NCBI GenBank assembly: GCA_963843795.1 | Contig: CAWJLW010000006.1 | Coordinates: 3,484,375 to 3,548,374 of the forward strand | DNA from: an uncultured bacterium | GTDB lineage: Bacteria; Armatimonadota; Abditibacteriia; Abditibacteriales; Abditibacteriaceae | Length of the DNA stretch: 64,000 nt | Direction of reading: 5' to 3' | In this document: one piece after another, positions 2,462-54,471 of the stretch | How the letters are laid out: each line of letters opens with the position of its first letter | Position numbering within the stretch: the first letter of the stretch is position 1 | Program-made: the position numbers and the translations under genes | Notes under the pieces: model-generated | Databases searched by the model: none | What the model was told of the DNA's origin: nothing | What the model saw: the letters and a program-made list of their open reading frames with translations, nothing else

Positions 2462-4360
2462 ATGAGCGATCAAAACACCAACACCTCAAAACTCGACCAG
2501 AACGACCCCGAATTGTGGCGCCAATTGGCCGCACAACTGCGCATCGACTCGATTCGTTGCACTACAGAAGCCGGTTCGGGCCACCCGACTTCGGCGATGT
2601 CGGCAGCCGATATTATGTCGGTTTTGCTGTGCAAGTACTTGCACTACGATTGGCAAAACGCCGACGCGCCCAACAACGATTCGCTGATTTTTTCCAAAGG
2701 TCACGCCTGCCCGCTTTTGTATGCGGCTTATAAAGCCGTCGGCGTAGTTTCCGAAGCCGAATTAATGACCGTGCGCCAGCTGGGCTCGCGCCTCGAAGGC
2801 CACCCAACGCCCGATATTCCGTGGGTCGAGGCCGCGACCGGTTCGCTGGGTCAGGGTTTGCCGATTGGCGTTGGCGATGCCCTTTCCGGCAAATATCTCG
2901 ACAAGCTGCCTTTCAAAACTTGGGTCATCTGCGGCGACAGCGAAATGGCTGAGGGTTCGATCTGGGAAGCCTTTGAACTCGCTTCGCATTACAAGCTGGA
3001 CAATTTGGTTGCGATTGTCGACGTGAACCGTTTGGGTCAGCGCGGCGAAACTATGCTGGGCCATCACATGGACGTTTATCGTGCTCGCGCGGAAGCGTTC
3101 GGCTGGCACGCCATTGTTATTGATGGTCACGATGTGGAAGCTGTTGATCGCGCGTTTCAAGAAGCGGTGAATACCAAAGACAAACCAATTTGCATTTTGG
3201 CCGAAACCAACAAAGGCCACGGCGCTTCTCTCACCGAAAACAAAGATGGATGGCACGGCAAAGCGCTTAGCCCCGAACAAGCCGAAGGTGCAATTGCTGA
3301 AATCGTCGAGAAAGTTGGCGGCCAACGCCCCGATTTGCTGATCGAAACCAAAAAACCCGAAGACGCCAACCTATATGTTGCGCCGACCGGCGAAAGCCAG
3401 AAAGTGAGCTACAACGTCGGCGATAAAGTCGCCTCGCGCGAAGCTTATGGCGCGGCCTTGGTTGCAATTGGCGCCGACGATCCGCTCGTCGTTGCTTTGG
3501 ACGCAGAAGTCTCGAACTCGACTTACTCCGAGAAATTCAAAGCCGCCTATCCCGACCGCTTTTTTGAGATTTATATCGCCGAGCAACAAATGGTTTCGGC
3601 TGCTGCGGGCTTGCAGAATCGCCGCAAGAAAGTGTTTTGCTCGACGTTTGCCGCGTTCTTCTCGCGCGCTTTCGACCAGATTCGTATGGGCGCAATTTCG
3701 CAGGCCAACCTGAAACTGGTCGGCACGCACGCGGGCGTGTCGATTGGCGAAGACGGCCCGTCTCAAATGGCATTGGAAGACATCGCCATGTTCCGCGCGG
3801 TTTATGGTTCGACGGTTTTGTACCCGTCTGATGCAACTTCGACTGCCGCTTTGGTGCGCGAAATGAAAGATTTGCCGGGCATTTCGTTTTTGCGTTCGAC
3901 GCGCGAAAAAACGCCGGTTTTGTATCCCGATACGGAAGAATTTCCGATTGGTGGCTCCAAAACCCTGCGTTCCAGCGACAATGACACAGCCACGATTATC
4001 GCCGCTGGCATCACGCTGCACGAAGCGCTGAAAGCTGCCGACGAGTTGAAAGATAAAGGCGTCGCGGTGCGTGTCATTGATTTGTATTCGGTGAAGCCGA
4101 TTGACGTAAAAACTATCGCGGTCGCTGCGCAGGAAACCCGTCATCTGATCGTCGTCGAAGATCATTGGCGCGAAGGCGGCTTGGGCGATGCGGTTTTGGC
4201 CGCTCTGGCCCACGCGCAATCCGAAGGCACGCTGGACGGCGAAGCGAGCAAGTTCACGCATCTGTGCGTTGATAAAATGCCGCGTTCGGGCAAACCGATG
4301 GAATTATTGGCCGATAACGGCATCGCCGCCGCCGACATCGTTAAAGCCGTACAAGGTTAA
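2462..4360 (+). CDS. tkt: Transketolase
   Basis: SGHPTS, SKGH, LEGHP, GSLGQG, GDSEMAEG TPP motif, GEDGPSQ; ATG at 2462 chosen. Confidence 0.95.
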   Translation: MSDQNTNTSKLDQNDPELWRQLAAQLRIDSIRCTTEAGSGHPTSAMSAADIMSVLLCKYLHYDWQNADAPNNDSLIFSKGHACPLLYAAYKAVGVVSEAELMTVRQLGSRLEGHPTPDIPWVEAATGSLGQGLPIGVGDALSGKYLDKLPFKTWVICGDSEMAEGSIWEAFELASHYKLDNLVAIVDVNRLGQRGETMLGHHMDVYRARAEAFGWHAIVIDGHDVEAVDRAFQEAVNTKDKPICILAETNKGHGASLTENKDGWHGKALSPEQAEGAIAEIVEKVGGQRPDLLIETKKPEDANLYVAPTGESQKVSYNVGDKVASREAYGAALVAIGADDPLVVALDAEVSNSTYSEKFKAAYPDRFFEIYIAEQQMVSAAAGLQNRRKKVFCSTFAAFFSRAFDQIRMGAISQANLKLVGTHAGVSIGEDGPSQMALEDIAMFRAVYGSTVLYPSDATSTAALVREMKDLPGISFLRSTREKTPVLYPDTEEFPIGGSKTLRSSDNDTATIIAAGITLHEALKAADELKDKGVAVRVIDLYSVKPIDVKTIAVAAQETRHLIVVEDHWREGGLGDAVLAALAHAQSEGTLDGEASKFTHLCVDKMPRSGKPMELLADNGIAAADIVKAVQG

Positions 4361-4430
4361 ATTTGTCGATAAAGCGGCGTTGCAAGTACTTGCGTAAGTA
4401 CTTGCAACGCCGCTTTATCGATTCTTTTCC

Positions 4431-4994
4431 ATGAATCAAGCGCCCTGCCCACCCACGCCCTGGCATTTGCAGGGCGACGCCATTGCACTTTTCGAGCGTG
4501 ATGGCGTGCGTTTGCTGGTGCATTACACCCATTCTCCAGTGGGCGCTTACGATGAATGTGCTTTGGCTCAGTTACACAGTTTTCGCGCCCTGCAAGTACT
4601 TGCAGGGCGCTTTATTGCGCCAGTCATCGCTCCGACAGTTGTCGAAATGCAAGTTAATTCGCCACGTTCGATGCAATGCGGTCGCGCGCTGTGGGGCTTT
4701 CCCAAAACCTTAGCGGCCTTGAATTGGCAGAGCAATGGCACGCACATCGCATTTGAAGCTTCGGGATTTGAAGCCTCAATCCCCGAAGTGCCGCGTCAAA
4801 AGTGGCGCTTTCGTTGCGCGCCCTTTGGTTTGCCGGTGAAACTGCACGCTCATGTGGTGCAAGTACTGGCGGGAAGCGATGTGCGCGTGTCGATGAAGCT
4901 GCGCGCACGGGCGCGCTTAGCGTGGCGCGGACAACAGTGGGGAATTTTGTTAGAAAATTTTGATTTTGTTGTGGAAGCACCGCAAAAGCTGTGA
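4431..4994 (+). CDS. Acetoacetate decarboxylase-like family protein
   Basis: PPTPWHLQG, HYTHSPVGAYDE, GRALWGFPKTLA typical of ADC-like proteins. Confidence 0.7.
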   Translation: MNQAPCPPTPWHLQGDAIALFERDGVRLLVHYTHSPVGAYDECALAQLHSFRALQVLAGRFIAPVIAPTVVEMQVNSPRSMQCGRALWGFPKTLAALNWQSNGTHIAFEASGFEASIPEVPRQKWRFRCAPFGLPVKLHAHVVQVLAGSDVRVSMKLRARARLAWRGQQWGILLENFDFVVEAPQKL

Positions 4995-5026
4995 CGCACC
5001 GTTAGCAGATTATCATTAGAGTCGTT

Positions 5027-5833
5027 ATGAAATTGACTTTTCTGGGCACGGGTACCAGTTATGGAGTACCTTTTGTCGGCTGTCACTGCGCGATTTGCCA
5101 ATCACACGACGCGCACGATAAACGCTTGCGCTCTTCGATTTTGGTCGAAGCCGAACATAATGGTGAAGCATTTCGGATTCTGGTCGATACCACGCCCGAT
5201 TTACGTCAGCAACTTTTGCGCTCGCATACCGAAATTCTCTCCGCCGTAGTGTGGACACACGATCACAACGATCACGTCATCGGATTGGACGATTTGCGCC
5301 CGATTTGCAATGTTGTCGGTTATATCGACGGCTACGCGCGCCAAGATACGATGGCGCGCCTACAGAAAATCTTCGATTACGTCTGGGTGCAAGATCGGCC
5401 GTATGCCAATTTCCCGCGCTTGACGCCGCACATCATCGAACCGAACCAGAGTTTTGCACTTGGCCCGTTTCGCGTTACGCCGATTGATATTCGTCACGGA
5501 CAGCGCGAAATTTTGGCTTATCGTTTCGAGTGCGGAAACCAGGCTCTGGTTTATGCGACTGATTGCTCGCAAATCCCCGACGCCTCGTGGCCGCATTTTG
5601 CCAATGCCGATGTTTTGGTCGTGGGTGCGCTGCGCCACAAGGAACATCCCACTCATTTCAACATCGAACAAGCGCTCGAAGTCGTTCGTCGCGCGCAGCC
5701 CGAACGCGCGTTTTTCACGCATATCGCGCACGAATTGGGGCACCAAGCCACCAACCAAACCTTGCCCGAAAATGTAGCACTGGCGTTCGATAATCAAAGC
5801 GTCGATCTTAAAGAAATCGCTGGTGGAAAATAG
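5027..5833 (+). CDS. PhnP-like MBL-fold phosphodiesterase
   Basis: LGTGTSYGVP, CxCxxC, THDHNDH, HPTH, THIAH. Confidence 0.9.
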   Translation: MKLTFLGTGTSYGVPFVGCHCAICQSHDAHDKRLRSSILVEAEHNGEAFRILVDTTPDLRQQLLRSHTEILSAVVWTHDHNDHVIGLDDLRPICNVVGYIDGYARQDTMARLQKIFDYVWVQDRPYANFPRLTPHIIEPNQSFALGPFRVTPIDIRHGQREILAYRFECGNQALVYATDCSQIPDASWPHFANADVLVVGALRHKEHPTHFNIEQALEVVRRAQPERAFFTHIAHELGHQATNQTLPENVALAFDNQSVDLKEIAGGK

Positions 5834-5877
5834 CGCTGCAAGTACTGCAGCTACTTGCAACGCTGTTGAACGAAGTT

Positions 5878-6636
5878 ATGAATTTGCTTTTACGCGGAGA
5901 AACCGTTGTCGTGACCGGCGGCGCCATTCGATTGGGGCGTGCCATTGCTTTGGAATGCGCGCGCCAGGGCGCCAGCGTTGCCATCACGTTCCACGATTCG
6001 CACGACGCGGCACGGCAAACTCTTGATGAGCTGCGTGCACTGAGCGATGAAAGCAGTCAGGCGAACTTTCAAGCTTATCGCGTTGACGTGCGCAAAACGG
6101 CGCAAATTGACAAATTGGTCGATGATATCGAAACCGATTTCGGCGGCGCAACAATGCTGGTCAATAACGCGGCAATTTTTCGCCGGACGCCATTGGAAAC
6201 TCTGTGCGAAGACGATTTCGATGATCACATCGCGACCAATCTTAAAGCGCCCTTCTGGTTGTCTCAACAGTTCGGTAAAATTATGGTAGAACGCGGCAAC
6301 GGTGCCATTGTCAATATCGCCGATATTCACGCGCAGCGTCCGCTGAAAAATTATGTGCCTTACTGCGTTTCCAAAGCTGGTGTGGTGATGCTGACGCAAA
6401 GTATGGCATTGGCTCTGGCTCCTACTGTGCGCGTGAATGCGGTGTGCCCGGGCACTATCGAACTTCCTCAGTCACCTGAGGACGAAGACAATATTCCAGA
6501 AATGATGCTGCCTAAGATTCCACTTCAACGTTTGGGGAATGGCAAAGATGTTGCTATGACAGTCCTGTTTCTGCTCAGTGCGCCCTATATTTCGGGGGCA
6601 ATTGTGCCCGTCGATGGCGCTCAGCACCTGCGTTAG
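5878..6636 (+). CDS. SDR oxidoreductase, pteridine reductase/FolM-like
   Basis: TGGAIRLG, VNNAA, YCVSK. Confidence 0.85.
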   Translation: MNLLLRGETVVVTGGAIRLGRAIALECARQGASVAITFHDSHDAARQTLDELRALSDESSQANFQAYRVDVRKTAQIDKLVDDIETDFGGATMLVNNAAIFRRTPLETLCEDDFDDHIATNLKAPFWLSQQFGKIMVERGNGAIVNIADIHAQRPLKNYVPYCVSKAGVVMLTQSMALALAPTVRVNAVCPGTIELPQSPEDEDNIPEMMLPKIPLQRLGNGKDVAMTVLFLLSAPYISGAIVPVDGAQHLR

Positions 6637-6706
6637 CGTTGATGCGGATCGAAGAGAAGCCGTTCGAGAAATTGTGGTAGACAATCCGAAGCAAAGGAGG
6701 TGCGAG

Positions 6707-7807
6707 ATAACGAAAATAGTGGTGGCCGAAGACGAGCAGGGAATTAGTATGCTGATCGCACTGTCTTTGCGCATGGAAGGCTACGAGGTTTTGCAGGCCA
6801 GCGATGGGCGAATGGCATTGGAAATGATTCGCAGGGAGCGCCCAGACTTAGTATTGCTGGATGTCATGATGCCGCACCTGTCGGGTTACCAAGTGGCTCG
6901 TGCGCTCCAGGAAGATGCCGCAACGGCTCTCATACCGATTATCTTCGTTACTGCCAAAGGCGAAATCGAAGATCGTCTCGAAGGGCTAGGAATAGCGACC
7001 GATTATGTGTGCAAGCCGTTCGCGGTGCCGGAATTGCTGGCGCGTGTGCGCGCGGCGTTACGCACGCATAATTTGCAGGAAGAATTGCGAGTTTCCAACG
7101 AACGTTTAACGCGTTTGGCAGTGACCGACGAATTGACTGAACTGGCCAACCGGCGCGGCTTCTTGAATGGCTTGGAAGATGAACTGCTGCGCGCGCGGCG
7201 TTTTGGCCACTCCAGCGCACTGTTGATCTTTGATCTGGATCATTTCAAAGCAGTTAACGATCGCTGGGGCCACGCGCGCGGCGACACAGTTTTAAAAACC
7301 TTTGCCCGCATTCTGTCAGAACAATCGCGTCGCGTCGATAAAACAGGCCGTTTGGGGGGCGAAGAATTTGTCGCCCTGTTGCCTAACACGGGCAGCGATG
7401 GCGCAGCTATTTTCGCCTCCAAAGTGCGCGAAGCCACTGAAAAAACCCAAATTCGCCTTGCTGAAGATAATCAAGATAGCGATGATACAACTAACATAAT
7501 CAATATCACGGTGTCTGCAGGTATCGCAGTGTTCTATCCCGAAATAAACACATCACAAATTCATGGTGGCGATGCAGCCAAAGGCCATTTTAATAGAGAA
7601 AAAAATCAGGACGACATCAGCGATGAAGACAATCGAGTGGTTGCCCTGGCCTTGCTGCGCATGGCTGATACCTGTCTTTATCAGGCCAAAGCAGAAGGTC
7701 GCAATCGCTGGGTGCTACGCGAAGTACATGGCGTAGCTCAACTTCCAATAGAAGAAACCATCGCCGAAAGTTCCAAATTAAATAGCTCCGATCAAAGCTC
7801 CGATTAA
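6707..7807 (+). CDS. Response regulator-diguanylate cyclase (REC-GGDEF, PleD/WspR-like); probable ATA start
   Basis: IVVAEDE...LLDVMMP...KPF receiver; DELTELANRR, DLDHFK, RLGGEEF; SD AAGGAGG at 6694-6700. Confidence 0.9.
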   Translation: MTKIVVAEDEQGISMLIALSLRMEGYEVLQASDGRMALEMIRRERPDLVLLDVMMPHLSGYQVARALQEDAATALIPIIFVTAKGEIEDRLEGLGIATDYVCKPFAVPELLARVRAALRTHNLQEELRVSNERLTRLAVTDELTELANRRGFLNGLEDELLRARRFGHSSALLIFDLDHFKAVNDRWGHARGDTVLKTFARILSEQSRRVDKTGRLGGEEFVALLPNTGSDGAAIFASKVREATEKTQIRLAEDNQDSDDTTNIINITVSAGIAVFYPEINTSQIHGGDAAKGHFNREKNQDDISDEDNRVVALALLRMADTCLYQAKAEGRNRWVLREVHGVAQLPIEETIAESSKLNSSDQSSD

Positions 7808-7935
7808 AGCGCTCACAGTCAAGAAAAGACAGAGATCTCACTGGCATTGGCATCACCTAATGTTGCAGGTATAAGTTAAGCTAAATCAAGTGAAATTAAC
7901 TTTTTAATCGACTGGCATTTCTGCAGGAGGCTTTT

Positions 7936-8769
7936 GTGTTGTCCCATTCTCGCCCCGAACATCTTCGTATCCCTCAACCCAAGAAAAAAGTTTCGGAATC
8001 GGCCTCCACATCCGAGGCCGATTCTCGTATATCCGCTGATACTCAACCCTTGCCCGCACCTTCGGCAGCGATTACGGACGCGACTGACGTTACAGAAGTA
8101 ACCGATTCAACACCTGAAAGCAAAACCGAGTCCGACGCCACTGGTTCCGCTTTAGAAGCGTGGGGAGGCAGAGCGATGGCTTCAGCACAAACTGCACCTG
8201 CGCGCGTTCGCGAGCGTGACAATTCGCCTCACCAAAAACCAGCCACCAAAAAGCGAGTTTCCGCCAAGAAGGCGAGCGCGTCAGTTACCGAAACGGCGCA
8301 ACTCCAAATCAATAAACCACAGAATCCTCGCCAACAATCCCATTCCGAAGCGCATCGCGAAACGCGCATTCTGGTAATCGAGAACGATATCGAGGCCGCC
8401 GATCATGTTATCCAAATTCTGGAAGCCGATGGTTACGCTGTTGAAATCGCCACCGACCCCACTTACGGCGCGATGCTGGCCAAAACCTTTTTGCCGCACC
8501 TGATTTTGTTGGGCGCTCTCTCCGAACAGCTCAGTGGAGCCGATTTTATGCGCTCACTGCGCAACACAGAAGGCTTCGCCGAGCGCTCTCAAGTCACACC
8601 GGTACTTTATCTCATCGATAACACTCACCTGATACAACAGCGCTTTCATGGTCTTCGCGACACGCCTTTGACCAGCACAATTTTCAAACCCGCCAACCAA
8701 CGCGAACTTTTGCAAAAAGTTGAACGCGCACTCTGGCCTCACCAAGACTTTTCGGACGATATTTCCTGA
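7936..8769 (+). CDS. Disordered N-terminus plus atypical receiver domain protein
   Basis: SD AGGAGG then GTG; C-terminal RILVIEND...LILLG...FKP receiver fold lacking the phospho-Asp. Confidence 0.7.
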   Translation: MLSHSRPEHLRIPQPKKKVSESASTSEADSRISADTQPLPAPSAAITDATDVTEVTDSTPESKTESDATGSALEAWGGRAMASAQTAPARVRERDNSPHQKPATKKRVSAKKASASVTETAQLQINKPQNPRQQSHSEAHRETRILVIENDIEAADHVIQILEADGYAVEIATDPTYGAMLAKTFLPHLILLGALSEQLSGADFMRSLRNTEGFAERSQVTPVLYLIDNTHLIQQRFHGLRDTPLTSTIFKPANQRELLQKVERALWPHQDFSDDIS

Positions 8770-8779
8770 ACTTCTTCCC

Positions 8780-8813
8780 AACGGCTGTGCAAGTACTTGC
8801 ATAGCCGTTTTTT
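8780..8813 (+). terminator. Intrinsic terminator centred on GCAAGTACTTGC
   Basis: AACGGCTGTGCAAGTACTTGCATAGCCGTT followed by T-run, 10 nt after stop. Confidence 0.75.
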
Positions 8814-8899
8814 GCGTTTGTGCTTGCGCGTTGGACCGTGAAAAAGATCGCCAAAATAGCGCCCAGATCGGCACTCTCAATCACTCAAATCAGGCAAAA

Positions 8900-9170
8900 A
8901 GTTATGCCTAACAGGGTGTGGATAACCCTGTGGAAAGCTAGGGACAAAAATGCAAAACTTTGTGTCAATATGGATAACAGGGATAAGTGCCCTAAGTTAT
9001 ACAGCACCCTATGGAAAACTTTTGAGGGTAAAAGCCTATACAGGCGTTAACAAATCGCCTTTTTGACAACAGTTATCCACTTATCCACACCCCTAATAAT
9101 AATAAGTACATATATATATATATATAGTACTGCAAACAGCCTCAAAATTTGAGGCTATGGATAAAACCAT
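8900..9170. promoter_or_regulatory. Probable oriC: DnaA-box cluster plus unwinding element
   Basis: Perfect boxes TGTGGATAA 8917-8925 and TTATCCACA 9081-9089; near-perfect 8969-8977, 9073-9081, 9156-9164; followed by CCCC-TAATAATAATAA and a (TA)n tract 9090-9126; upstream of dnaN. Confidence 0.85.
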
Positions 9171-9208
9171 AAACTGTTAGGATTTTTGTGGTTTGAAAAG
9201 GAATTGAA

Positions 9209-9415
9209 ATGGAACAGCTTTTAGATCGCACCGCACAAGAAAAATCGAAAGAACAAACTTTAGTCGAAGGTGTGCCAAACGGATTGCGCGCTGATGGCGC
9301 TTTGTCACAAGCGATGGTGTGTCCCAACTGTGGTTGTGAATTGCAGGGACGCAAATGCAAATTGTTGTGCATGCGGCCCGGTTGCGGCTATTTGGTCACC
9401 TGCAGCGAGTGGTAA
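9209..9415 (+). CDS. Small Cys-rich CPxCG-type zinc-finger protein
   Basis: CPNCG...CKLLC...CGY..TCSEW; AAGGA upstream of ATG. Confidence 0.65.
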   Translation: MEQLLDRTAQEKSKEQTLVEGVPNGLRADGALSQAMVCPNCGCELQGRKCKLLCMRPGCGYLVTCSEW

Positions 9416-9574
9416 AATCGGCAAACAAGTTTGAAAAATGAATTCTGTGATACGAAAAATATTTTGCGAACGGGGTAGAAATTGTTGCGCATATCGGTCA
9501 AAGTACTTGGTTGCCCCGACGAGCGCTGTGCACTTGAAAACGATTTTTGTTGCTGCTTAGCTTTCAAAAATGCG

Positions 9575-9625
9575 CTAACTTTCCACAATTGATAGGGAAA
9601 AGTCTGGGGATAAGTGGGATAACTC
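9575..9625. promoter_or_regulatory. Degenerate DnaA boxes upstream of dnaN
   Basis: CTTTCCACA 9580-9588, TGGGGATAA 9605-9613, GTGGGATAA 9613-9621. Confidence 0.55.
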
Positions 9626-9713
9626 CCATTTTTTATGGGTTTTTTGGTGAAATTTGCTGAAAAATCGGAAAAACAAAGAAATTTTGGTCGGTCGGTGTTG
9701 GAGACTTGAAGCT

Positions 9714-10814
9714 ATGAAAATCACTTGTGAGCGTTCGTATTTGGCAGAAGCGTTGGGTGTGGCAAGCCGTGCGGTGTCGAGCCGTAACACATTGCCGATT
9801 CTGTCCAACGTTTTGCTGCAAGCGCAGAACGACCGCTTGCAACTCACCGCGACCGATTTGGACACTTCGATTCGCAGTGTAATTCCCGCCCAAATCTCGG
9901 TCGATGGCGAAGTCGCGGTGCCCGCAGCGTTGCTTTTGAGCGTGGTTTCCAAGCTCAAAGACGCGCCGGTCACGCTCGAAGCTCAGGATGGCAAAGTCAG
10001 CGTGCGCAGTGGCAAAAGCGATTACACCGTTTTATCGCTTCCCGCCGAAGATTTTCCAGTTGTGCCACAAGTCGAAAGCGGAACCGAGTTTTCCGTGCCG
10101 CAAGCGACGCTCAAAGATATGTTGCGTTTGACAACTTTCGCTGCGGCTCGCGAAGAAACGCGCGGCCCGCTGATGGGCGTTTTGTTCGAGGCACGCGGCA
10201 ATACCTTGACGATGGTTGCGACCGACACGCATCGCTTGGCGTGGAAGCAAGCCGAAATGGCCGACACCGCAGAAACTCCGATCAGTGTGATTGTGCCGGC
10301 CAGCCCACTTCGTGATTTGGAACGCGTGCTGAGCAACTCGCAAGACGACAGCGTTCACATTCGCTTTGGCCGCTCTCAGGTGCAGTTCGAAGCGTCAGGC
10401 GTGACTTTGATTTCACGCGTTTTGGACGGTCAATTTCCGCCTTACGAAAAAGTTATCCCCAAAAATCCCGAGCGCAAAATCACCTTCGACCGCGCGACGA
10501 TGCTGAGCGCAATTCAGCGCGTCGAACTCGTCGCCAAAACCAACAACGAGCGTGGCGTGTGGCAAACCAAAGGCGATATGCTAGAACTGACCGCTGAAAG
10601 TCAGGAAGTCGGCAAAGCCTACGAAGAAGTTCCGATTGCGCTCGAAGGCAGCGACATCACTATCGCTTTCAACGCCGGTTATCTGGCGCAAGTGCTGAGC
10701 ATCGTGCAAGCCGAACAGATGACACTCGACTTGACTGGCCCCTTGAATCCCGGCATTTTGCGTGGCGAAAACGAAACCGATTTTCTCTATGTCGTGATGC
10801 CGATGAATATCTAA
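9714..10814 (+). CDS. dnaN: DNA polymerase III beta clamp
   Basis: LPILSNVLL, ATDLD, ATDTHRL, GQFPPY, YVVMPM; ATG at 9714. Confidence 0.97.
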   Translation: MKITCERSYLAEALGVASRAVSSRNTLPILSNVLLQAQNDRLQLTATDLDTSIRSVIPAQISVDGEVAVPAALLLSVVSKLKDAPVTLEAQDGKVSVRSGKSDYTVLSLPAEDFPVVPQVESGTEFSVPQATLKDMLRLTTFAAAREETRGPLMGVLFEARGNTLTMVATDTHRLAWKQAEMADTAETPISVIVPASPLRDLERVLSNSQDDSVHIRFGRSQVQFEASGVTLISRVLDGQFPPYEKVIPKNPERKITFDRATMLSAIQRVELVAKTNNERGVWQTKGDMLELTAESQEVGKAYEEVPIALEGSDITIAFNAGYLAQVLSIVQAEQMTLDLTGPLNPGILRGENETDFLYVVMPMNI

Positions 10815-10836
10815 ACAACGCTTTGAGATTCTCCCA

Positions 10837-10864
10837 AACGGCCCGCAAGTACTTGCGGGCCGTT
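10837..10864. repeat. Perfect 28-bp palindrome centred on GCAAGTACTTGC
   Basis: AACGGCCCGCAAGTACTTGCGGGCCGTT between dnaN and recF. Confidence 0.95.
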
Positions 10865-10890
10865 CCTGCGTTTAAAGCGCTCATTTTCTC

Positions 10891-12090
10891 ATGTTCGTTC
10901 GTGCCCTGCGCCTCACTAATTTTCGTAACTACGCGCTGCAAGATTTGCAGTTACCAACTGGGCTGATCGCTTTTATCGGCGATAACGGACAGGGCAAAAC
11001 CAACTTGCTCGAAGCGATTTGCGTCCTCGCGACCACAAAATCTCCGCTTGTCGAACGCGACCGCGAACTGTTGCGTTGGGACAGCCAAAATGCGCGATTG
11101 GAAGCCGAAGTGCAGCTTTCGGGCGGACGTGGCGAGAAGCGGCGTCTGGCTTTCGAATGGAAGCTGCAAAATAGCAATTTGTCGCGCGATTTGCGCGTCG
11201 GTGGCGTGCCACAATCGGCTCTTTCAAGTTGGCTTGGACAATTGCAAGTCGTCGCGTTTTTTCCTCACGATTTAACTTTAATTGCTGGCGAACCCGAACA
11301 ACGGCGGCGCTTTTTGAACTTGGAACTGGGCAAAGCGCGCCCAGCGCATTTCGCCGATAGCGCACGTTATCGACGCGCGTTGCAGCAGCGCAATGCCTTG
11401 TTGAAATGGTTTCTCGATCCGAAAAATCGTCGTGCTCGCAAAGCTCAACCCAATGGGGAAAACGCGCCCGTCGCGCCTAATGCCGGTCTGGGAACTCTGG
11501 GCGATTGGAACAAACAAGTTGCAACTTATGGCGCGCGTTTGTGGGCGGCGCGCGCGCAATGGGTGCGCGAAATCGAGCCTTTGCTGCGCGAAGTTCATGG
11601 TGAACTTTCGGGAATTACGATGCCTTTGGGCATCGAATATCAACCCGGTTTGCCGCCTGAAATAGTCAATTTAGGTGATGAAAATTTCGGCTGGCAGCGC
11701 GCTTTCGAACGCGCGTTAGAAAACCAATACGAAAGCGATATGCGGCGCGGCACGACCGGCAGCGGGCCGCACCGCGATGACTTGGTTTTTCGTTTGGGCG
11801 ATATGGATTTGCGCCGTTTCGGTTCACAGGGTCAAAATCGTCTGGCGGTTTTAGCGCTTAAAATCGCGCTCGCTTTTTGGGTGCGCGAAACGACCGGCGA
11901 AGCGCCGATTCTGCTGCTTGATGATGCCCTGAGCGAACTCGACGCCACGCGACGCCAGCGCGTTTTGCAACTGGCTTCGAGCTTTGAACAAAGTATTCTC
12001 ACCGCGACCGACGAAACTTTTTTGCACGATGTGCCCGCTCGCGTGCTTTCGATTCGCAACGGCCAGATTATTGGCGCGCTGGCCTCCTAA
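10891..12090 (+). CDS. recF: DNA replication/repair protein RecF
   Basis: NFRNY, GDNGQGKTN, GPHRDDL, SQGQ, LLLDDALSELD. Confidence 0.97.
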   Translation: MFVRALRLTNFRNYALQDLQLPTGLIAFIGDNGQGKTNLLEAICVLATTKSPLVERDRELLRWDSQNARLEAEVQLSGGRGEKRRLAFEWKLQNSNLSRDLRVGGVPQSALSSWLGQLQVVAFFPHDLTLIAGEPEQRRRFLNLELGKARPAHFADSARYRRALQQRNALLKWFLDPKNRRARKAQPNGENAPVAPNAGLGTLGDWNKQVATYGARLWAARAQWVREIEPLLREVHGELSGITMPLGIEYQPGLPPEIVNLGDENFGWQRAFERALENQYESDMRRGTTGSGPHRDDLVFRLGDMDLRRFGSQGQNRLAVLALKIALAFWVRETTGEAPILLLDDALSELDATRRQRVLQLASSFEQSILTATDETFLHDVPARVLSIRNGQIIGALAS

Positions 12091-12128
12091 ATCAAAAATC
12101 TTCGAAAGTTTTCCTAAATTTGGAAAAG

Positions 12129-12160
12129 TTATCCATAAAGTTATCCATGCCTGTGGATAA
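12129..12160. promoter_or_regulatory. Cluster of three DnaA boxes upstream of dciA
   Basis: TTATCCATA 12129-12137, TTATCCATG 12141-12149, perfect TGTGGATAA 12152-12160. Confidence 0.75.
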
Positions 12161-12300
12161 GTCGGGCGAAAATCGTCTTACAAGTACTTGCAGGACGGTT
12201 TTTGGACAAAAAACTGCGAAAATGTAGCTTTATTTGCTATTGGTCGGGGTAGAATGAAAGTGTGATTTGCGCTTTACACAGCGACTTTGAGACAACGCTT

Positions 12301-12825
12301 ATGGAAACGATGAGAGAAATGGAGAACGTCAGCAGCATCGTCACCAGCGTGCTGGAGTCGCGTGGTTGGCGCGGCAAAGTTCTCGAGCAAATGGCGGTCG
12401 AACTGTGGCCCGAAGTCGTTGGCGATGTCATCGCGCGCCACACCCTCGCCGAGCGTTTCAAAAACGGCACGTTGTATGTGCGCGCCCGCTCGCCGCTGTG
12501 GACACAGGAATTACATTTTCATCACGACCGCGTAATCGCGCGCTTAAACGGGCGTTTGAAAGCCAACTTGGTCGCGAAAATTCGTTGTAGCGTGACGCCG
12601 CCACGTGGCATCAAAACCGGTGCCCTCAAGCCGACGTGGGAAGACCCGACTTTTCCCGTCCAAGCACCGCAAGCGCGCGACGCCAAGCCCGATCCTGACG
12701 ATGCTTCGCATCAACACGCGAAAACTTTGTGCTCACATATCGAAGACGATGATGTGCGCGCCATTATGGAGCGCGCCATCGCGGCTTCGTTGCGCGCGGG
12801 CAAACGCAAAAATTTAGATGAATAA
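12301..12825 (+). CDS. dciA: DciA (DUF721) helicase-loader family protein; start 12301-12319
   Basis: WPEVVGDVIARHT...GTLYV...SPLWTQEL signature; located after recF. Confidence 0.85.
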   Translation: METMREMENVSSIVTSVLESRGWRGKVLEQMAVELWPEVVGDVIARHTLAERFKNGTLYVRARSPLWTQELHFHHDRVIARLNGRLKANLVAKIRCSVTPPRGIKTGALKPTWEDPTFPVQAPQARDAKPDPDDASHQHAKTLCSHIEDDDVRAIMERAIAASLRAGKRKNLDE

Positions 12826-12839
12826 GAGTTGGCCAGCCC

Positions 12840-12873
12840 AAAAACGTCCTGCAAGTACTTGCAGGACGTTTTT
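12840..12873. terminator. Perfect 34-bp palindrome with A/T tails
   Basis: AAAAACGTCCTGCAAGTACTTGCAGGACGTTTTT. Confidence 0.8.
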
Positions 12874-12954
12874 CGGCTTGTGTAGTAAAATTGTCTTTCC
12901 GCGTCTGTAACTTAGATTTACGCCATTAACGATTTGCAGCGCTGCGGAGAATTT

Positions 12955-14247
12955 ATGAACGATCTCAAAACCTTGCGCGCCCAGCCCGAACTGTTGCGCG
13001 CCGCTTTGCAAAATCGCCAGATGCCGGATGCGCTGCATTATGTCGATGAGTTGATCGCTTTGGACGAACAGCGGCGCGCCAATCTCGTCGAAGTCGAAAC
13101 TCTCAAGCGCCAACGCAACGAAAGTTCGCAGGAAGTCGCGCGCCGCAAACGCAATGCGGAAAACACCGATGACTTAATCGCGCAAACCCGCGAAATTGGC
13201 GAGCAAATTTCGCAGCTGGACGAACGCGCGCGCGAAATTGACGCACAGTTGCAACAAATCGCCTACGAATTGCCTAACATTCCCGATGCCAGTACGCCGG
13301 TTGGAGCTGATGAAAACGGTAATCGCGAAGTCGCGAAATGGGGCGAAATTCCTTCCATTGAAAAAGCGCAAACACATTGGGAAATCGCGGAAAAATTGGG
13401 CATCATCGAATTCGAGCGCGCCACCAAAATCTCTGGTTCGCGTTTTTACGCCTTGCGCGGAATCGGCGCGCGTTTAGAGCGGGCCTTGATTTCGTTCATG
13501 TTGGATTGTCACACCGTCCAAAGTGATTACGAGGAAATTTTCCCGCCGTTTTTAGTCAATTCGGCTTCGATGACCGCGACCGGGCAGTTGCCTAAATTCG
13601 GCGAAGACGCTTACAAAATCGAAAACGATGATTTGTGGCTGATTCCGACCGCCGAAGTTCCCGTCACCAATTTGCATCGCGACGAAATTCTGGAAAGTGC
13701 GCAACTGCCGATTAAATACGCCGCTTACTCGGCGTGTTTTCGTCGCGAAGCCGGTTCGGCCGGACGCGACACGCGGGGCATTATTCGCGTGCATCAATTC
13801 AACAAAGTCGAGCTGGTGAAGTTCAGCGCTCCCAACGATTCGATGGACGAGTTAGAAAAGTTGCGTCGCGATGCCGAAATGATTCTGGAGCGTTTGGAAT
13901 TGCCGTATCGCACCGTGCAATTGTGCAGCGGCGACCTGGGTTTTTCGGCTTGCAAAACTTTCGATATCGAAGTGTGGATGCCAGGACAAAGCGTTTATCG
14001 CGAAATTTCTTCGTGCTCAAATTTTGGCGATTTCCAAGCGCGGCGCGCGAATATCCGCTATCGTCCTTTAGATGAAAAAGGCAAAGCTGGCAAGCCGGAA
14101 TGGGTACACACTTTGAATGGTTCTGGTTTGGCAGTCGGGCGCACGATGGCGGCGCTTTTGGAAAACAATCAGCAAGCCGATGGCAGCGTCCGGGTGCCGA
14201 GCGCATTGCGTCCTTATTTGGGCGGTTTGGAATTTATTGGCGCTTAA
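12955..14247 (+). CDS. serS: Serine-tRNA ligase
   Basis: N-terminal coiled coil, [30 protein letters not shown]. Confidence 0.97.
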
Positions 14248-15699: not shown

Positions 15700-15701
15700 A
15701 A

Positions 15702-17450: not shown

Positions 17451-17453
17451 CGA

Positions 17454-17487: not shown

Positions 17488-17495
17488 CTACATTT

Positions 17496-43262: not shown

Positions 43263-43265
43263 AAC

Positions 43266-43305
43266 ACGAAAAGCGCTCTGCAAGTACTTGCAGAGCGCTT
43301 TTCGT
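43266..43305. terminator. Perfect 40-bp palindrome, probable bidirectional terminator
   Basis: ACGAAAAGCGCTCTGCAAGTACTTGCAGAGCGCTTTTCGT between convergent genes. Confidence 0.85.
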
Positions 43306-46325: not shown

Positions 46326-49300
46326 TTATGGGGTTTGCGCGAGCAAATCGGGGGTTAAATTTTCGTTATTTTCTAATTCGCCAGCGATTTCACTGGCGAA
46401 TTCGCTATTAAGTTCTTCGGTGCTATCGGAGGTTTTATCGAGCGAGCGTAGCGGCAAGCACAGGACGAAGGTGGTGCCCTTGCCTTCTTCCGATTGCGCA
46501 CTGATATCGCCGCCGTGATCTTGCAAAATGCGGCGCGTAACGGGCAAGCCCAAACCTGAACCGGAAAGTTTGGTAGAAAAGAATGGATCGAAAATTTGTT
46601 TCAGGCTATTTTGTGAGATGCCGACGCCGGTATCGCTGATCAAAATTTCGACAAATCGACTGTTGGGATTTCTGCTGTGAGGGTCGTCTTTAATTTGATG
46701 AATTTGCGCGGCCTGTTCGCAGCCGCTGTGGTCGAGATCGGTGAGGCGCGTGCTGACGCGGAGCGTGCCACCTCCCGTCATCGCCTGTGCGCCGTTGCGC
46801 GCAATGTTCAAAACCGCTTGTAACAAGCGGCTGCGGTCGAAAACGACCGGCGGCAAATCGGGTGCAAAGTCGCGCACCAGTTGGATATTGCCGCCGCGCA
46901 GATCGGCATCGGCCAGCAGCAGGGCATGCTCAACGACATCATTGAGCGAATGCGGAGACAAGTTGAGTTCGCGCGGGCGCGCCATGTCCAGCAAATCGGT
47001 CAACAATTCTTCCAAACGCTTCACTTCATCGACGATAATGGCGGCTTTGCGCGCGACACCTTCGGCATCATCGGGCTTGCGCAAAACGCCGCGCGCAAAG
47101 CCGCCAATGGTGGAAAGCGGATTGCGAATTTCGTGCGAAACGCGCGCCGCCATCTGGCCCACCGCGACCAAACGTTCGGCGGAAACCACTTCGCGCTGCG
47201 CTTTTTGCAAGGCCTGATAAGTCAGGGCGTTTCCAACGGTCAAACCGGCTTGCTGAGAAAGCGTATCGAGCAGTTGAACATCATCATCATCGATATGATT
47301 TCCCGAATACAGATTATCCGCCAGCACTACACCGACCAAACCATCGCTGGTCAAAAGCGGGGCAACGGCAATTTCGCTCGCGGTAAAAAGTTGTGAAGCG
47401 GCTTCGTATTGTGCGCGCTGCTCTTCGTTTAGCTCCTCGCTGGGTGCGAACAGGTCTGCAGGCGTGGCGCAGATAGCGCTGCCTTCGTCCATCACCTGTA
47501 CAAATGGAGCCAGAGCAGGGTTATCGAAATCGAGTTTGATCGCGCGCGTGAAATTTTGCAGCGGCGTCTGCGACGACGGGTCGAACTTGCCCTGAAAACT
47601 ATCGGCGCCCGCTAAAATTTCCTGCAAGCTGGGATCGCGCTGCGACATTTCGTGCCAAATTTTTCCGGCTTCGTCGGGCGACGACGGCCCCAAGGCCATC
47701 GCGCCTTCAAGAAAAGCGCTGCCTTCGCCTTCGGATCGCGTATGACGCAACAGCACAAAAGCGCGATTGAAGCCCAGTGAGGAACCCGCAGTGATACAGG
47801 TCAAAACCGTATGCAGCACGCGATCAATATCGAGCGAAGCCTGAAAGAAACGCGAAATTTCGTGCATCAATTGCAACTGATGCGTTTTGCGCCAGCGCAG
47901 CGTAATATTGATTAACAGCAGAACCGCTTTGGCTTCGCCACGAAAATACACGCGGAAAATACGCGTATCAAAAACGAAATGGCTATCGTTGGCCCACACC
48001 TGAACTTCAGGCACTTCGCGCGCGATGCCGTCTTCGGTCACCTGCCGAATCGTGGATTCGAGATCGTGTTTATCGATCAGATTTTGCCCGAATGCTTGTG
48101 CCATCGGTTGCCCGACCAATTGTTCGCGCTCCATGCCCAGCACTTGGCACAAGCGCACGTTCACTACTTCCATCGTGCCCTGCGTATCGACGACTAAGAG
48201 CGAATGAGACATCGTATCGAGCAGCGTTTGATGAAACTGATTCAATTCTTCGATTTCGCGAAACAAACGGCTCGAATGCAAATGCGAAGCGATAATGGTG
48301 CACGCGGTTTCCAACGCGACGGCATCGCGCGCATCAAAGGCAATCGCGTCCTGACATTGCACTGCGACTACACCCATCACGCGACCTTCGGAAACCACCG
48401 GCACGCACATTTCAGCGCGCGATTCCCGATAAACGCCGGGCGCTCGCTCGCTTTGCTCATCACCGACATTGGTGCGGTCACGCGAATAATGCAAAGTCTG
48501 CCCGTTTAACGCGGCGCGCCCCGGCAACCCCAACCCCAGCGGATGACGACCGCCCGGCGGCACCGCCAATCCGTAACCGCCCGATTGTGCGACCGCTACG
48601 AGTTCGCCGTCGGGCACCCCATTCGGTGCGCCTTCGTGCTGCGTTTCGTGGTCAGCCTGTGCAGTGCGCGAGTTTTGCGGCGCGTTGATAACGGTGTTGA
48701 GCGCGCTTTTACCCTGCGATTCCAGCGAAAAGAAAGTCACATCGCACTCGCGAAAATGGTTCTGAATCGCAATCGTTGCGCACTGCAGAAATTCTTCGAG
48801 AACCGGATTATCCAGCGCGCAACGCTGCACATCGTTAATAAGCGATAAATGCTGGGCGCGGCGCTGCTCCTGCAAAAAAAGCGCTCGATAGCGTTCTTCC
48901 GATTGTTGCAGCTCACGCGTGCGCGAAGCCACGCGCTCTTCCAGCTGTCCGGCGTAGGATTGCAATTCGCGCTGGCTTTGGCGCAACTGTGTGACATCGC
49001 GCAAAATCGCCTGCGCCACGCGATTGCCATCAACTGTAATCCAGTTGCACGAAAGCGAAACCGGCACTTCCAAACGTGGCCCGCGATTGAGGCGACGACC
49101 GCTGCGCTCCATGCCCACCGTGGGCAAATTCGCATTCGCGCCATTGCGGGCCGAAGCGTAATTAAGCGGGTCTTCTGCAAGTACTTGCGTGTCGTTGGGC
49201 CCCGTCCTGGCCGATGCATCCGAATCGGGAGGATTGGCGCTGGCTTCCGTTTCCGCACCAGCATCAGATTCGCTTGGAGCCTTTTCAATCGGACCGGGCC

Positions 49301-49997: not shown

Positions 49998-50108
49998 AAA
50001 AAAATTAGAGCCGTGCGAATTCAGTGCGTTTTCGATGCCTTGCAAGTACTTGCGGTGTGGCCCTTCACGCAAGTACTTGCAAGGCACGTATTATCAACTA
50101 AATCACGA

Positions 50109-51140: not shown

Positions 51141-51295
51141 AAAGAGATAATTCCTCGAAAATCAGTTTCTATGCGCCTTTTTGCGCGCCGTTAGTATGCT
51201 GCAAGTACTTGCAGCATGGCGGGCACGCGCCGCAATGGGCCGCTTCAATTCCTGATACGTTCCTCATAACACCAAACGAAACTCCGGTTTCGCCG

Positions 51296-52360: not shown

Positions 52361-52383
52361 GATTTTCCTTGATCCAAAATTTC

Positions 52384-54471
52384 TTACCCTTCAATCGGCT
52401 CCAACCGCAAATAATCCAGCCCGAACAGCGCGCCCGCCGACTGGGCGTTGGTCCCATTGACTTTAACCTCAAATTGATTATTTTTATCTTTGAGAGCGAA
52501 AATGCCCAGCTCGATTTCGGGCGTGATTGTCACTTCGGGCGCGTAGAAATCGCGCGGCTCCCCAATTGTGCGCCCATTGATTGACAATTGATGGACGCCG
52601 TAATCGCGCGCTTTGAGAAAGCGACCGAAAACGCGATAGCGTCCGGGGGCGGGCGCATCGAAATTTAAGCGCAGTTCTTCACCAATTTGCAGCAGATCGT
52701 GCCACCACAATTGTTCGCCGCCGCTGAGACCTTCCCACGCTTGAACATTGGCCTTGGCACTTTGCGAACTGTTACTCGCGACGCGCATCGTTTCACCTTC
52801 AATTGCCCCCGCCACTTTGGGTGCGCCTTCATATTCGGGCATGGCAAGTACTTGCAGGTCGCTGGGGCGCAGTGGCGCGAAGCTGTCGGCGGCTCCGGGC
52901 TTGGCATACCAGTAGGCAACGGTCGCGAGGTTGATTTTGGTTTCGACCCAGTGCGACAATTCCATATCGAACTGCATGCTTTGCTCGAAGGGAATGCGGT
53001 CGAAAATATGAAAGCGCACATCGCTGGCGCGGCCCCAGTGACCGCGCCCCGGCCCGCAACTGCCCGGCCCATCGGCGCGCGGTTGTGCGTGATAAGCATG
53101 CGTGAATTCGGTCGTGTCGCACCAGGCATAGCCGAAATAATCTTCGCTGCCAGTGCCAAACCACGATGGGAAACTTTCGCCGTCGACATAAACTTTTTCG
53201 TCGCCTTCGCCCCACCATTTCACGTTGGGATTATCGACCGCATAAGACAAGCCGGCGAAAACGCCCTGACCTTGGGCACCCAACATCGTGAAATCGCGAA
53301 ACGGGCGTGTCGCGATGTCGTGACGCGCGATGAAATTAGCGTGAAAGTGCATCGAATTCGGTGTCCACACATAAGGCTTGGTGCCGAGTTGCCCGTTCAG
53401 CTTTACCGCTTTGGCGCCCATATTCTGCACGCTCACCCGCGCACTGCGCGCAAACGGCATCACCCAGTGGCTCCACATTTCGCCGCCTTCGGTAATGCCC
53501 GAAGGCAGCGCGCTATAAGGATTTTGGCCGGGCGCAGTGCCGAAAAAATCGCCGAGGGGCGCTTCGACGGTTTCTTCGCCATCGAAATTGAAGCGCAACA
53601 CCACGCCGCGTAACGCTTCATCGGAAATATCGGAATTGGTGCGCATCAGAAAATCAGTAATCGCCAGCGCGCCCTTCCATTCACCCAGCGTTTGCGTCGC
53701 GCCCGCAGCCAAATTTAAATCGAACTTGCGCGTTTGGTTCGGCGTGACGCCTTGAGCGCGCGGATTTTCCAAACGCGCGGCGGTGGTTTTAATTTGCGGC
53801 GCGAATTGGTTCAAGTGCGCGCGCTGAAAAGTTTCGACCGGCGTGTTCTTTGGGTAAGTGCGGTAAGCGATGGTGTAATAAATATCGCCGCCATCCATTG
53901 TAATCTTGCACGATTTCGCGTAGGCAATTGGAAAATACAGGTTATGGCCGCGTGCGCGTTCGCCTGCCATCGGCATTGGAAAACCCTGAACTTTGCCATC
54001 CAATAATTCTTTCATCGGCGCTTCGATGGCGGGCGTTATTGCGCCATCGAGATAAACGCGTAAGGTGCCGTCAGGGTTGGCCGACCAGATGCGCACGACA
54101 GCGCCCGGCCCTTGGGCGTCCATCATCACTTTTTCCTGGCGTCCATCGCGCTCTTCGACGCGCAAATACTGCCCATGATCGTTGTTGGCGAACCAATCCC
54201 AGCGCGGAGCATTGGACGTGCGGTCGTAGGACGAAAATTGTTTGGTGGTGTAACTAGCGCTGGGAAATTCGGCCATCGAACCCAAATCGGCCATTTCACT
54301 TAACAGGCTCGCGGTTGTGATTTGGTGCGCTGCAAGTACTTGCGTTTGCACTTGCGCCTGCGCCCTCACGCGTGGCGATTGCGTGTTCGTCCACAACGCG
54401 CCCAACGCACAGCCAAAAACGGTTAGTGCAATGATTCGGCTCGGTGAAACTGTGGGAAATTTTTGATTCAT
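52384..54471 (-). CDS. Exported GH172 (DUF2961) glycoside hydrolase with C-terminal beta-sandwich
   Basis: QFSSYDR, GPGAVVRIW, PLGDFFG, MPF, WWGEGDEK, GTGSEDYFGYAW. Confidence 0.88.
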   Translation of the reverse strand: MNQKFPTVSPSRIIALTVFGCALGALWTNTQSPRVRAQAQVQTQVLAAHQITTASLLSEMADLGSMAEFPSASYTTKQFSSYDRTSNAPRWDWFANNDHGQYLRVEERDGRQEKVMMDAQGPGAVVRIWSANPDGTLRVYLDGAITPAIEAPMKELLDGKVQGFPMPMAGERARGHNLYFPIAYAKSCKITMDGGDIYYTIAYRTYPKNTPVETFQRAHLNQFAPQIKTTAARLENPRAQGVTPNQTRKFDLNLAAGATQTLGEWKGALAITDFLMRTNSDISDEALRGVVLRFNFDGEETVEAPLGDFFGTAPGQNPYSALPSGITEGGEMWSHWVMPFARSARVSVQNMGAKAVKLNGQLGTKPYVWTPNSMHFHANFIARHDIATRPFRDFTMLGAQGQGVFAGLSYAVDNPNVKWWGEGDEKVYVDGESFPSWFGTGSEDYFGYAWCDTTEFTHAYHAQPRADGPGSCGPGRGHWGRASDVRFHIFDRIPFEQSMQFDMELSHWVETKINLATVAYWYAKPGAADSFAPLRPSDLQVLAMPEYEGAPKVAGAIEGETMRVASNSSQSAKANVQAWEGLSGGEQLWWHDLLQIGEELRLNFDAPAPGRYRVFGRFLKARDYGVHQLSINGRTIGEPRDFYAPEVTITPEIELGIFALKDKNNQFEVKVNGTNAQSAGALFGLDYLRLEPIEG

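Follow-up and report, generated by a model that had tools for sequence, protein, structure and literature searches.

The window analysed here, a stretch of 64,000 nucleotides from an uncultured bacterium, and the genome to which it belongs (G000; 4.30 Mb in 11 contigs) carry a 12-nt perfect palindrome, GCAAGTACTTGC, in very large numbers. In genes this word has entered mostly by substitution, and there it dictates the encoded peptides, while between genes it occupies the apex of terminator-like hairpins. The reading that we tentatively prefer, on the grounds of sequence comparison, is that it is a lineage-specific signature word that may be kept by a symmetric reader favouring DNA of the own species, with natural transformation as the most probable setting.

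The window contains 39 exact copies, as compared with a mean of 0.01 and a maximum of 1 in 100 dinucleotide-preserving shuffles, and the whole genome contains 2,567, where base composition predicts about 0.25. The density on the chromosome is 0.63 copies/kb, and 2,279 of the 2,815 AGTACT hexamers of the main chromosome fall within the 12-mer. Next to the 2,567 exact copies there are 506 with one and 371 with two mismatches, an exact to one-mismatch ratio of 5:1, and constraint is seen at all 12 positions, the deviations being mostly transitions. Some process keeps the word exact. The copies are also spread more evenly than at random, with a mean spacing of 1,575 nt (coefficient of variation 0.89), deficits at 100-500 nt and beyond 4 kb, and a density of 47-83 per 100 kb in all but one of the 36 chromosomal bins. 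Eighteen of the 39 window copies lie in open reading frames (ORFs) and 21 are intergenic or at gene edges, and in the genome about 30% of the copies are in genes and about 70% outside stringent coding sequence. The 12-mer was not found in the literature searched, the matches listed for the 8- or 10-mers were unrelated, and a search that paired Abditibacteri- with palindromes gave nothing relevant.

In coding sequence the word can be read in three frames (QVLA, KYL or CKYL, and ASTC), none of which contains a stop codon, as is readable straight from the sequence and as the first-pass annotation of this DNA had stated. Genes were called with a crude codon-score ORF picker (3,375 ORFs, 88% of the genome), and codons and peptides were counted in 2,997 ORFs with 1,098,611 codons, the first tenth of each ORF being removed. 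Among the 687 stringent coding copies, the QVLA frame is used 427 times, KYL 143 times and ASTC 117 times (62:21:17). The tripeptide QVL is spelled CAA-GTA-CTT in 501 of its 843 occurrences, with 3.1 expected from codon usage, KYL is spelled AAG-TAC-TTG in 187 of 300 (12.6 expected), and 119 of the 137 ASTC are spelled by the word (0.27 expected). GTA makes up 7.5% of the Val codons and CTT 8.6% of the Leu codons, and yet they are used in 59% of QVL. Also the peptides themselves are in excess: QVLA occurs 512 times with 34 expected from composition (about 15-fold), ASTC 137 times with 3.5 expected, and CKYL 43 times with 0.9 expected, as compared with 25, 3 and 1 occurrences of the reversed peptides ALVQ, CTSA and LYKC. 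The excess is 15-47-fold for the tetrapeptides and 2.7-4.8-fold for the tripeptides. That these codons would be used no more often than codon usage predicts, which the first-pass annotation had named as the outcome that would speak against its view, is clearly not what was found, and an explanation by chance, in which the tetrapeptides are simply common and codon usage then makes the word, has a practically negligible probability: it is refuted by the rare GTA and CTT codons in most QVL, by reversed peptides at or below expectation, and by the nearly word-free shuffles. The DNA word dictates the peptides and not the reverse, and the proteome is measurably reshaped. The earlier claim of a molecular drive strong enough to reshape the proteome therefore holds for the reshaping, which the codon and peptide excess demonstrates, but no computation demonstrates drive as opposed to selection; as a mechanism, drive is plausible.

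For comparison, a genome of the same genus was used (G001; an assembly of 560 contigs, 63% complete), which shows synteny with the window and a nucleotide identity of about 70%. It was sampled with 54 contigs of 298 kb in total. A DNA-level alignment of the two genomes covers only 95 of the 298 kb and favours sites that share the core, for which reason it was replaced by a protein-guided alignment (159 high-scoring segment pairs (HSPs), 50,930 aa, 60% identity). The amino acid identity in the flanks of coding copies is 0.41 at G000 sites and 0.52 at G001 sites, as compared with a baseline of 0.60, and none of 5,000 resamples was as low. Coding copies thus prefer poorly conserved segments, as well as the QVLA frame.

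All 12 in-frame copies that had been listed in the first-pass annotation were confirmed among the window matches, all inside ORFs and in the frames given there, and six exact ORF copies are added (41095, 50042, 50069, 55539, 60620 and 63893). The 18 ORF copies of the window are the following, with the frame, the gene and the residues of G001 where they could be compared:

2631-2642, CKYL, coding, transketolase (tkt) residue 97, placed by Pfam and ORF; G001 has AKHL, CCAAGCACTTGC
4592-4603, QVLA, coding, gene 4431-4994; centre of a 26-bp perfect palindrome (4585-4610), a true insertion with a T-rich tail
15720-15731, ASTC, residues 8-11 of the longest arginyl-tRNA synthetase (ArgRS) ORF; the G001 alignment begins only at residue 46
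21110-21121, minus strand, QVLA, coding, T2SSF domain gene 20572-21567; 22-bp palindrome in a variable linker
33323-33334, CKYL, coding, xylose-isomerase-like TIM barrel protein residue 68; G001 ortholog LQRVR, ungapped
35036-35047, QVLA, coding, zinc alcohol dehydrogenase (ADH) residue 90; no G001 ortholog within the sample
35495-35506, QVLA, coding, zinc alcohol dehydrogenase residue 243, placed by Pfam and ORF
37763-37774, QVLA, coding, TPR protein residue 316, placed by Pfam and ORF
41095-41106, KYL frame, PA14-domain ORF residue 18; near the ORF start, may be untranslated
41312-41323, QVLA, coding, PA14-domain protein residue 91, placed by Pfam and ORF
49177-49188, minus strand, QVLA, coding, histidine kinase; G000-specific linker, G001 gapped throughout the segment
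50042-50053, KYL frame, histidine kinase ORF residue 12; probably 5' of the true start, G001 alignment from residue 32
50069-50080, KYL frame, histidine kinase ORF residue 3; probably untranslated, inverted repeat with the copy at 50042
52844-52855, QVLA, coding, DUF2961 protein residue 579; G001 LVVRV, ungapped
54332-54343, QVLA, coding, DUF2961 protein residue 83; G001 alignment from residue 90
55539-55550, QVLA, coding, ABC permease residue 29; G001 SPVFC, gap one residue off
60620-60631, ASTC, coding, class A penicillin-binding protein residue 82, placed by Pfam and ORF
63893-63904, QVLA, coding, 1349-aa ORF residue 161, placed by ORF

The ArgRS ORF has an alternative in-frame TTG start at residue 22, which makes translation of the copy at 15720 uncertain. 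Its first 35 codons (window 15699-15800) contain one exact and two degenerate copies (GCAAGTAACTGC and GCAAGTACCTGC), and this Cys-rich N-terminal stretch (ASTC...SNCASTC) resembles protein less than it does a spacer with copies in decay.

The intergenic copies have a different appearance. The genome-wide logo consists of an A-run, a G/C-rich arm, CT-GCAAGTACTTGC-AG, the opposite arm and a T-run, and 879 of the 2,567 copies have the 16-mer form with the CT and AG flanks. Perfect palindromes of at least 20 bp make up 41% of the intergenic copies (n = 1,324) and only 44 (6.4%) of the stringent coding copies, 443 of which are bare 12-mers. The 414 palindromes that reach 28 bp or more have 218 different 8-nt arm sequences between them, so that the tip alone is fixed and the stems are individual. 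The location follows the orientation of the genes: convergent spacers hold 5.0 copies/kb and 71% of them are occupied, tandem spacers hold 2.9 copies/kb, with the median copy 29 nt past the stop codon and 598 of 840 copies nearer to the stop than to the next start, and divergent spacers hold 1.6 copies/kb. In the first 20,000 nt of the window (1-20000), the motif hairpins are the strongest terminator-like matches. Intergenic copies occupy the apex of terminator-like hairpins behind genes. The 21 intergenic or gene-edge copies of the window are the following:

460-471, intergenic or gene-edge
1204-1215, intergenic, 26-bp perfect palindrome, terminator-like on both strands
4382-4393, intergenic, 22 nt past the tkt stop, 48-nt hairpin with a second partial copy
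8789-8800, intergenic, 20 nt past a stop, hairpin and T-run
10845-10856, intergenic after dnaN, 28-bp palindrome
12851-12862, intergenic after the DciA gene, 34-bp palindrome, A-run and T-run
14288-14299, intergenic after the SerRS gene
17465-17476, intergenic, 15 nt past the ArgRS stop, 34-bp palindrome
18202-18213, intergenic after the rpe gene
20079-20090, intergenic between convergent genes, 52-bp perfect palindrome
22121-22132, intergenic, upstream of the efp gene
23830-23841, intergenic between convergent genes, 48-bp palindrome
26736-26747, at the 5' edge of pyrD, 22-bp palindrome
33113-33124, intergenic, 32-bp palindrome
35864-35875, intergenic, 12 nt past the ADH stop, 40-bp palindrome
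36763-36774, intergenic, 40-bp palindrome, A-run and T-run
39794-39805, intergenic after the TPR gene
43280-43291, intergenic between convergent genes, 40-bp palindrome
51201-51212, intergenic, 22-bp palindrome
57285-57296, intergenic, 38-bp palindrome
62798-62809, intergenic, 24 nt past a stop

Two regions of the window form compound hairpins with two copies per stem-loop, namely 4370-4417 (with the partial copy at 4396-4405) and 50042-50080. Elsewhere in the genome, head-to-tail doublets of the word are found at hairpin tips, spaced by 12 nt (12 cases), 13 nt (6) or 10 nt (4), for example at G000:C6 373244, 425361 and 741190, and these doublets suggest slippage or local duplication. Public metagenome contigs that cover window 33127-43277 join distant copies of the word (33113 with 36763, 39794 and 43280), most likely as chimeras of k-mer assembly through the shared hairpin. 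The contigs from the two DNA runs used are short and of low depth, and within the copies of the word that they cover no variant was listed, at a coverage too thin to carry weight. The word can thus mislead short-read k-mer assemblers, and it also inflates apparent "conserved peptides".

The hairpins raise the question of whether the word is, in the first place, the tip of a hairpin that terminates transcription in both directions or stabilises RNA, with the coding copies as a non-functional spill-over, for example by short-patch conversion starting from the numerous intergenic ones. The large share of copies outside stringent coding sequence, in a genome that is 88% coding, would agree with this, as would the occupancy of convergent spacers, the short distance to the stop codons, the rank of the motif hairpins among the terminator-like matches at the beginning of the window, and the presence of a copy within 100 nt of 50% of 107 gene 3' ends. 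But the bare coding copies, which can form a stem of 4 bp at most, are letter-perfect, and divergent spacers, which have no 3' ends, hold about eight times the estimated coding density. A terminator also does not need a fixed tip, and G001 has motif-free terminators at orthologous 3' ends. Ordinary homologous conversion needs more than 12 bp. Such a primary role in termination is clearly unlikely.

How the word entered the genes can be judged from the alignments. At 31 coding copies of G000 that could be compared with G001, 21 have no gap within 5 codons, 5 have a gap nearby and 5 have a gap in the motif codons, and at 63 copies of its own variant in G001 the corresponding numbers are 49, 8 and 6; the baseline from 46,560 five-codon windows is 87.1% without a gap, 7.9% with a gap nearby and 5.0% with a gap inside. 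Of the 31 G000 sites, 20 have a net length change of zero, 5 a positive and 6 a negative one, and three coding palindromes of 20-22 bp show zero length change relative to G001. The residues of G001 at word sites are often near-alike already, as in LQVLA versus LQQLG, LQELR, LEVHA or VQPLS. The word enters genes mostly by substitution at tolerant positions, and true insertions are rare. The alignment of motif sites to orthologs that had been proposed in the first-pass annotation accordingly gives a predominance of substitution (21 of 31 gap-free) together with one true insertion. The tkt copy had been taken there for a substitution, and rightly so: all 80 homologs that span residues 85-122 (81 loci supplied) align without a gap and carry x-(K/S/D/N)-(Y/H)-L in place of CKYL. 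The extended palindromes had been taken for inserted peptides, and this is borne out for 4585-4610, where all 23 spanning family homologs of gene 4431-4994 (24 loci supplied) lack 11-16 residues at the 26-bp palindrome, 15 residues in 21 of the 23, which corresponds to an insertion of about 45 nt. It is not borne out for 21105-21126, as only 5 of 20 homologs of the T2SSF-domain protein span the linker, all of them gapped or dissimilar, and in such a non-alignable linker an insertion cannot be shown.

The insertion in gene 4431-4994 is an argument for a miniature mobile palindromic element, similar to REP/RAYT elements (repetitive extragenic palindromes and their transposases), miniature inverted-repeat transposable elements or Rickettsia palindromic elements (RPEs), that would insert into spacers and, with the frame kept, also into genes. 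The tandem copies at 10, 12 and 13 nt and the enrichment of coding sites at indel-prone places point in the same direction. However, most coding copies in both genomes have no nearby indel, the length changes are symmetric, and the conserved part is just the central 12-16 nt with highly diverse arms. When the genome was compared with itself (358 non-self HSPs), no repeat was seen with the word in one member and without it in the other, and in 13 copies the word was in both members. As to the mobilising enzyme, RAYT (Y1 transposase, PF01797) has one weak and partial match in G000 (E = 4e-7, a 149-aa ORF), whereas word-less relatives have strong ones. A mobile element is thus very improbable, and the analogy to RPEs that had been drawn in the first-pass annotation does not hold in general, since at the alignable coding copies residues are lost as often as they are gained and coding palindromes of 20-22 bp appear without length change.

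A further property of the word is its restriction to one lineage, where it comes in dialects. The 12-mer has 0-3 copies in each of 30 relatives. Its 8-mer core AAGTACTT occurs 2,965 times in G000 (control 90) and 2,725 times in G001 (control 48), and 0-59 times in 17 other family members, several of which are far below the control (e.g. 0 versus 77-153). In five of them (G005, G008, G011, G018 and G007) there are 0, 0, 0, 0 and 2 copies, as compared with 57-153 of the reversed control word. The scarcity of the core in word-less relatives suggests an avoidance of the sub-word AGTACT or GTAC, perhaps through restriction; the Pfam family RE_ScaI is silent in 31 genomes but also in 14 control genomes and is therefore uninformative. 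Three dialects can be distinguished, GCAAGTACTTGC in G000, CAAAGTACTTTG in G001 and NCAAGTACTTGN in metagenome relatives. In G001, position ±5 is A/T in 84% and position ±6 is C/G in 72% of the sites, and 108 of 261 sites are exact. A scan of metagenomes with the 16-mer gave many long contigs with a GC content of 0.60-0.71 and 66-79% nucleotide identity to G000, and in the non-ascertained sites of such relatives (115, 84 and 16 sites) C/G is found at ±5 in about 90%, with ±6 being loose. The dialect changes are symmetric in both half-sites throughout.

Some of the sites persist between the lineages. AGTACT is present at the same codons of G001 in 3 of 26 ungapped coding sites of G000 (p = 0.002), and at the same codons of G000 in 5 of 57 sites of G001, with a chance of sharing of about 1% per site. 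For same-core metagenome relatives (172 HSPs, 60.6% identity, a protein divergence equal to that of G001), sharing extends to 5 of 12 ungapped coding sites, which is significant against density even though the numbers are small (p = 1.5e-7), and the difference between 5/12 and 3/26 is just significant (Fisher one-sided p = 0.049). Shared sites show the own dialect of each genome, which sometimes changes residues, as in AQVLA versus DKVLS and LQVLA versus LKVLP. In G001, the dialect form AAAAGTACT falls on the codons for the P-loop residues G-K-S-T (e.g. L090), so that some shared sites may be conserved as protein motifs and not as DNA words. It is conceivable, though we regard it as doubtful, that a symmetric reader has shifted its specificity between the sister lineages (half-sites GCAAGT and ACTTGC, NCAAGT and ACTTGN, CAAAGT and ACTTTG) and that thousands of sites, including codons, have followed. 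If true, orthologous proteins would differ because the DNA dialect changed and not because of a need of the protein, so that a self-recognition tag would keep rewriting a part of the proteome, and the comparison of the sister genomes would single out the reader.

The word is scarce in DNA of foreign origin. The two largest chromosomal deserts, of 26.5 kb and 25.7 kb (G000:C6:56010-82495 and 517680-543429; loci L383-L386), contain IS21, IS3-type, IS110 and DDE transposases, a type I restriction-modification system (HsdS, HsdM) and an HNH nuclease; they also carry extra ParB- and ParA-like genes. The density on contigs ranges from 0.07 to 0.63 copies/kb, some small contigs being word-poor, and a plasmid look-up with one small contig gave a single irrelevant match of 110 nt. 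The window itself contains dnaN, recF, the DciA gene and SerRS (9654-14247) as well as parB and parA (28382-30449), and it lies 75-139 kb from the end of a 3.62-Mb contig, which together place it probably near the replication origin.

A word that is kept exact, even in density and scarce in foreign DNA could be maintained in more than one way. In the reading that we tentatively prefer, a dimeric protein would read the word, as is suggested by the perfect two-fold symmetry and by the way in which both half-sites change together from lineage to lineage. Near-matches would be lifted to fixation by a bias in uptake or recombination, or by selection for such a bias. Given a word that is favoured throughout the genome, genes would retain copies only at places where the tetrapeptide does no harm, and this would explain why one frame is preferred and why the copies lie in variable segments. 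Being self-complementary, the word can, in addition, fill the tip of a hairpin with the stem left intact.

A related possibility is a word of the type of HIP1, the highly iterated palindrome of cyanobacteria, without a role in uptake. As a site of binding or modification it would serve the organisation of the chromosome or nucleoid, replication or repair, and either selection acting site by site or a repair bias for this sequence would keep it. HIP1 is a perfect palindrome as well, and the even density, the regular spacing and the high ratio of exact to one-mismatch copies would agree with such a word, as would the persistence of same-core sites, which resembles the conservation of HIP1 sites between genomes reported in PMC5861425. 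The regularity of the spacing stems, however, largely from one copy behind each gene. For HIP1, a methylation-dependent repair model has been proposed (PMC4390886), and in G000 and G001 neither a C5 methyltransferase (PF00145) nor Vsr was found, so that a repair model that depends on methylcytosine lacks parts here. The sole N4/N6 beta-class methyltransferase (PF01555; 256 aa, DPPY), which looks like an orphan enzyme, shares 74% identity with its counterpart in G001 and 71% with that in the word-less G012 and is therefore not tied to the word. Its conservation within the family (57-74% identity; L106, G000:C6:2517383-2518069; also L104, L103 and L108) exceeds the average protein identity of 60% to G001, so that it may be a housekeeping methylase. 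PF02384 gave seven matches, one of them inside a motif desert, with no specificity assigned. Taken together, a HIP1-type word without an uptake role is rather improbable, though less so than the terminator or the mobile element.

Several points weigh against the preferred reading of a signature word kept by a reader for own-species DNA. G000 encodes ComEC, DprA, a ComEA-type HHH_3 domain and several secretins, but the word-less G002, G005 and G012 have the same competence genes, which are thus permissive, not supportive. A reader protein was not found in the searches for methyltransferases, Vsr, RAYT and competence genes, none of which was aimed at a receptor. The known uptake sequences of the DUS and USS type (DNA uptake sequences and uptake signal sequences) are asymmetric, and the word is palindromic. 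With regard to the entry by substitution, a gap falls in the motif codons at 11 of 94 sites as compared with the 5% baseline (p = 0.007), a modest enrichment at indel-prone places, which together with the one clear insertion means that substitution is not the sole route. Among the 107 orthologous gene ends, 53 in G000 and 39 in G001 have a copy within 100 nt and 16 have one in both, where 19.3 would be expected if the two were independent; this joint occupancy is no better than chance and indicates that most 3'-end sites turn over, which fits drive, weak selection or another genome-wide process. Finally, the 5' ends of the ORFs are over-extended, as the first decile of the ORFs holds 365 "coding" copies and each other decile about 80, which is why the first tenth of every ORF was dropped for the codon test.

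By its properties the word joins the kind of HIP1 and the DNA uptake sequences, the closest analogues, both of which the first-pass annotation had already named. The signature words known as DUS, USS and HIP1 are thereby extended to a little-studied, non-cyanobacterial lineage, probably the Abditibacteriaceae (by tkt in a single-gene search, the closest named relative is an Abditibacteriaceae metagenome-assembled genome, with 71% identity). It is a clean example, with a long exact word, symmetric dialects in sister lineages, a strong effect on the proteome and a distinction between bare coding copies and intergenic hairpin copies. Sister genomes with different dialects and about 60% amino acid identity make a good system in which to look for the reader by co-variation and to test the idea of a tag for uptake or recombination, a question that is now also asked of HIP1.

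With HIP1 (GCGATCGC) and the alternate palindromes of cyanobacteria, the word shares the perfect palindromic symmetry, hundreds to thousands of copies in genic and intergenic positions and in all frames, the lineage-specific replacement by variant palindromes and the conservation of sites between related genomes. After a long time without an assigned function, HIP1 has now been linked to transformation and proposed as an uptake signal (PMC13756078), which brings it closer to the DNA uptake sequences. It is, however, a GC-rich 8-mer of cyanobacteria, whereas the word described here has 12-16 nt with an A/T-rich core in a non-cyanobacterial host, is concentrated at hairpin tips behind genes, has one-mismatch variants that are not restricted to the outer positions, and comes without a C5 methyltransferase or Vsr found in the two genomes.

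DUS and USS often sit in terminator hairpins, as the word does. Like them, it occurs about once per 1.6 kb, has dialects at the species level and is rare in recently acquired genes, and in genes it shows a frame bias, a preference for poorly conserved residues and inflated peptides. According to PMC2817400, uptake sequences are placed at poorly conserved residues, have 34.5-65% of their copies in genes and leave tripeptides "approximately doubled". The distortion found here (15-fold for QVLA, 2.7-4.8-fold for tripeptides) exceeds that doubling, and the genic share, at about 30%, is below that range.

With the REP elements and bacterial interspersed mosaic elements (BIMEs), the word shares the palindromic structure, the mostly intergenic location behind genes and the ability to form hairpins. 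Unlike these, it is fixed over 12-16 nt with free arms, about 30% of its copies are coding and arose by substitution, and there is no convincing RAYT gene in G000. RPEs are insertions of roughly 100-150 bp. The word resembles them as a palindrome in frame within protein genes, with one true insertion in gene 4431-4994, but its unit is 12 nt and usually replaces codons at constant length, so that this likeness is superficial, and the word stands closer to HIP1 and the uptake sequences.

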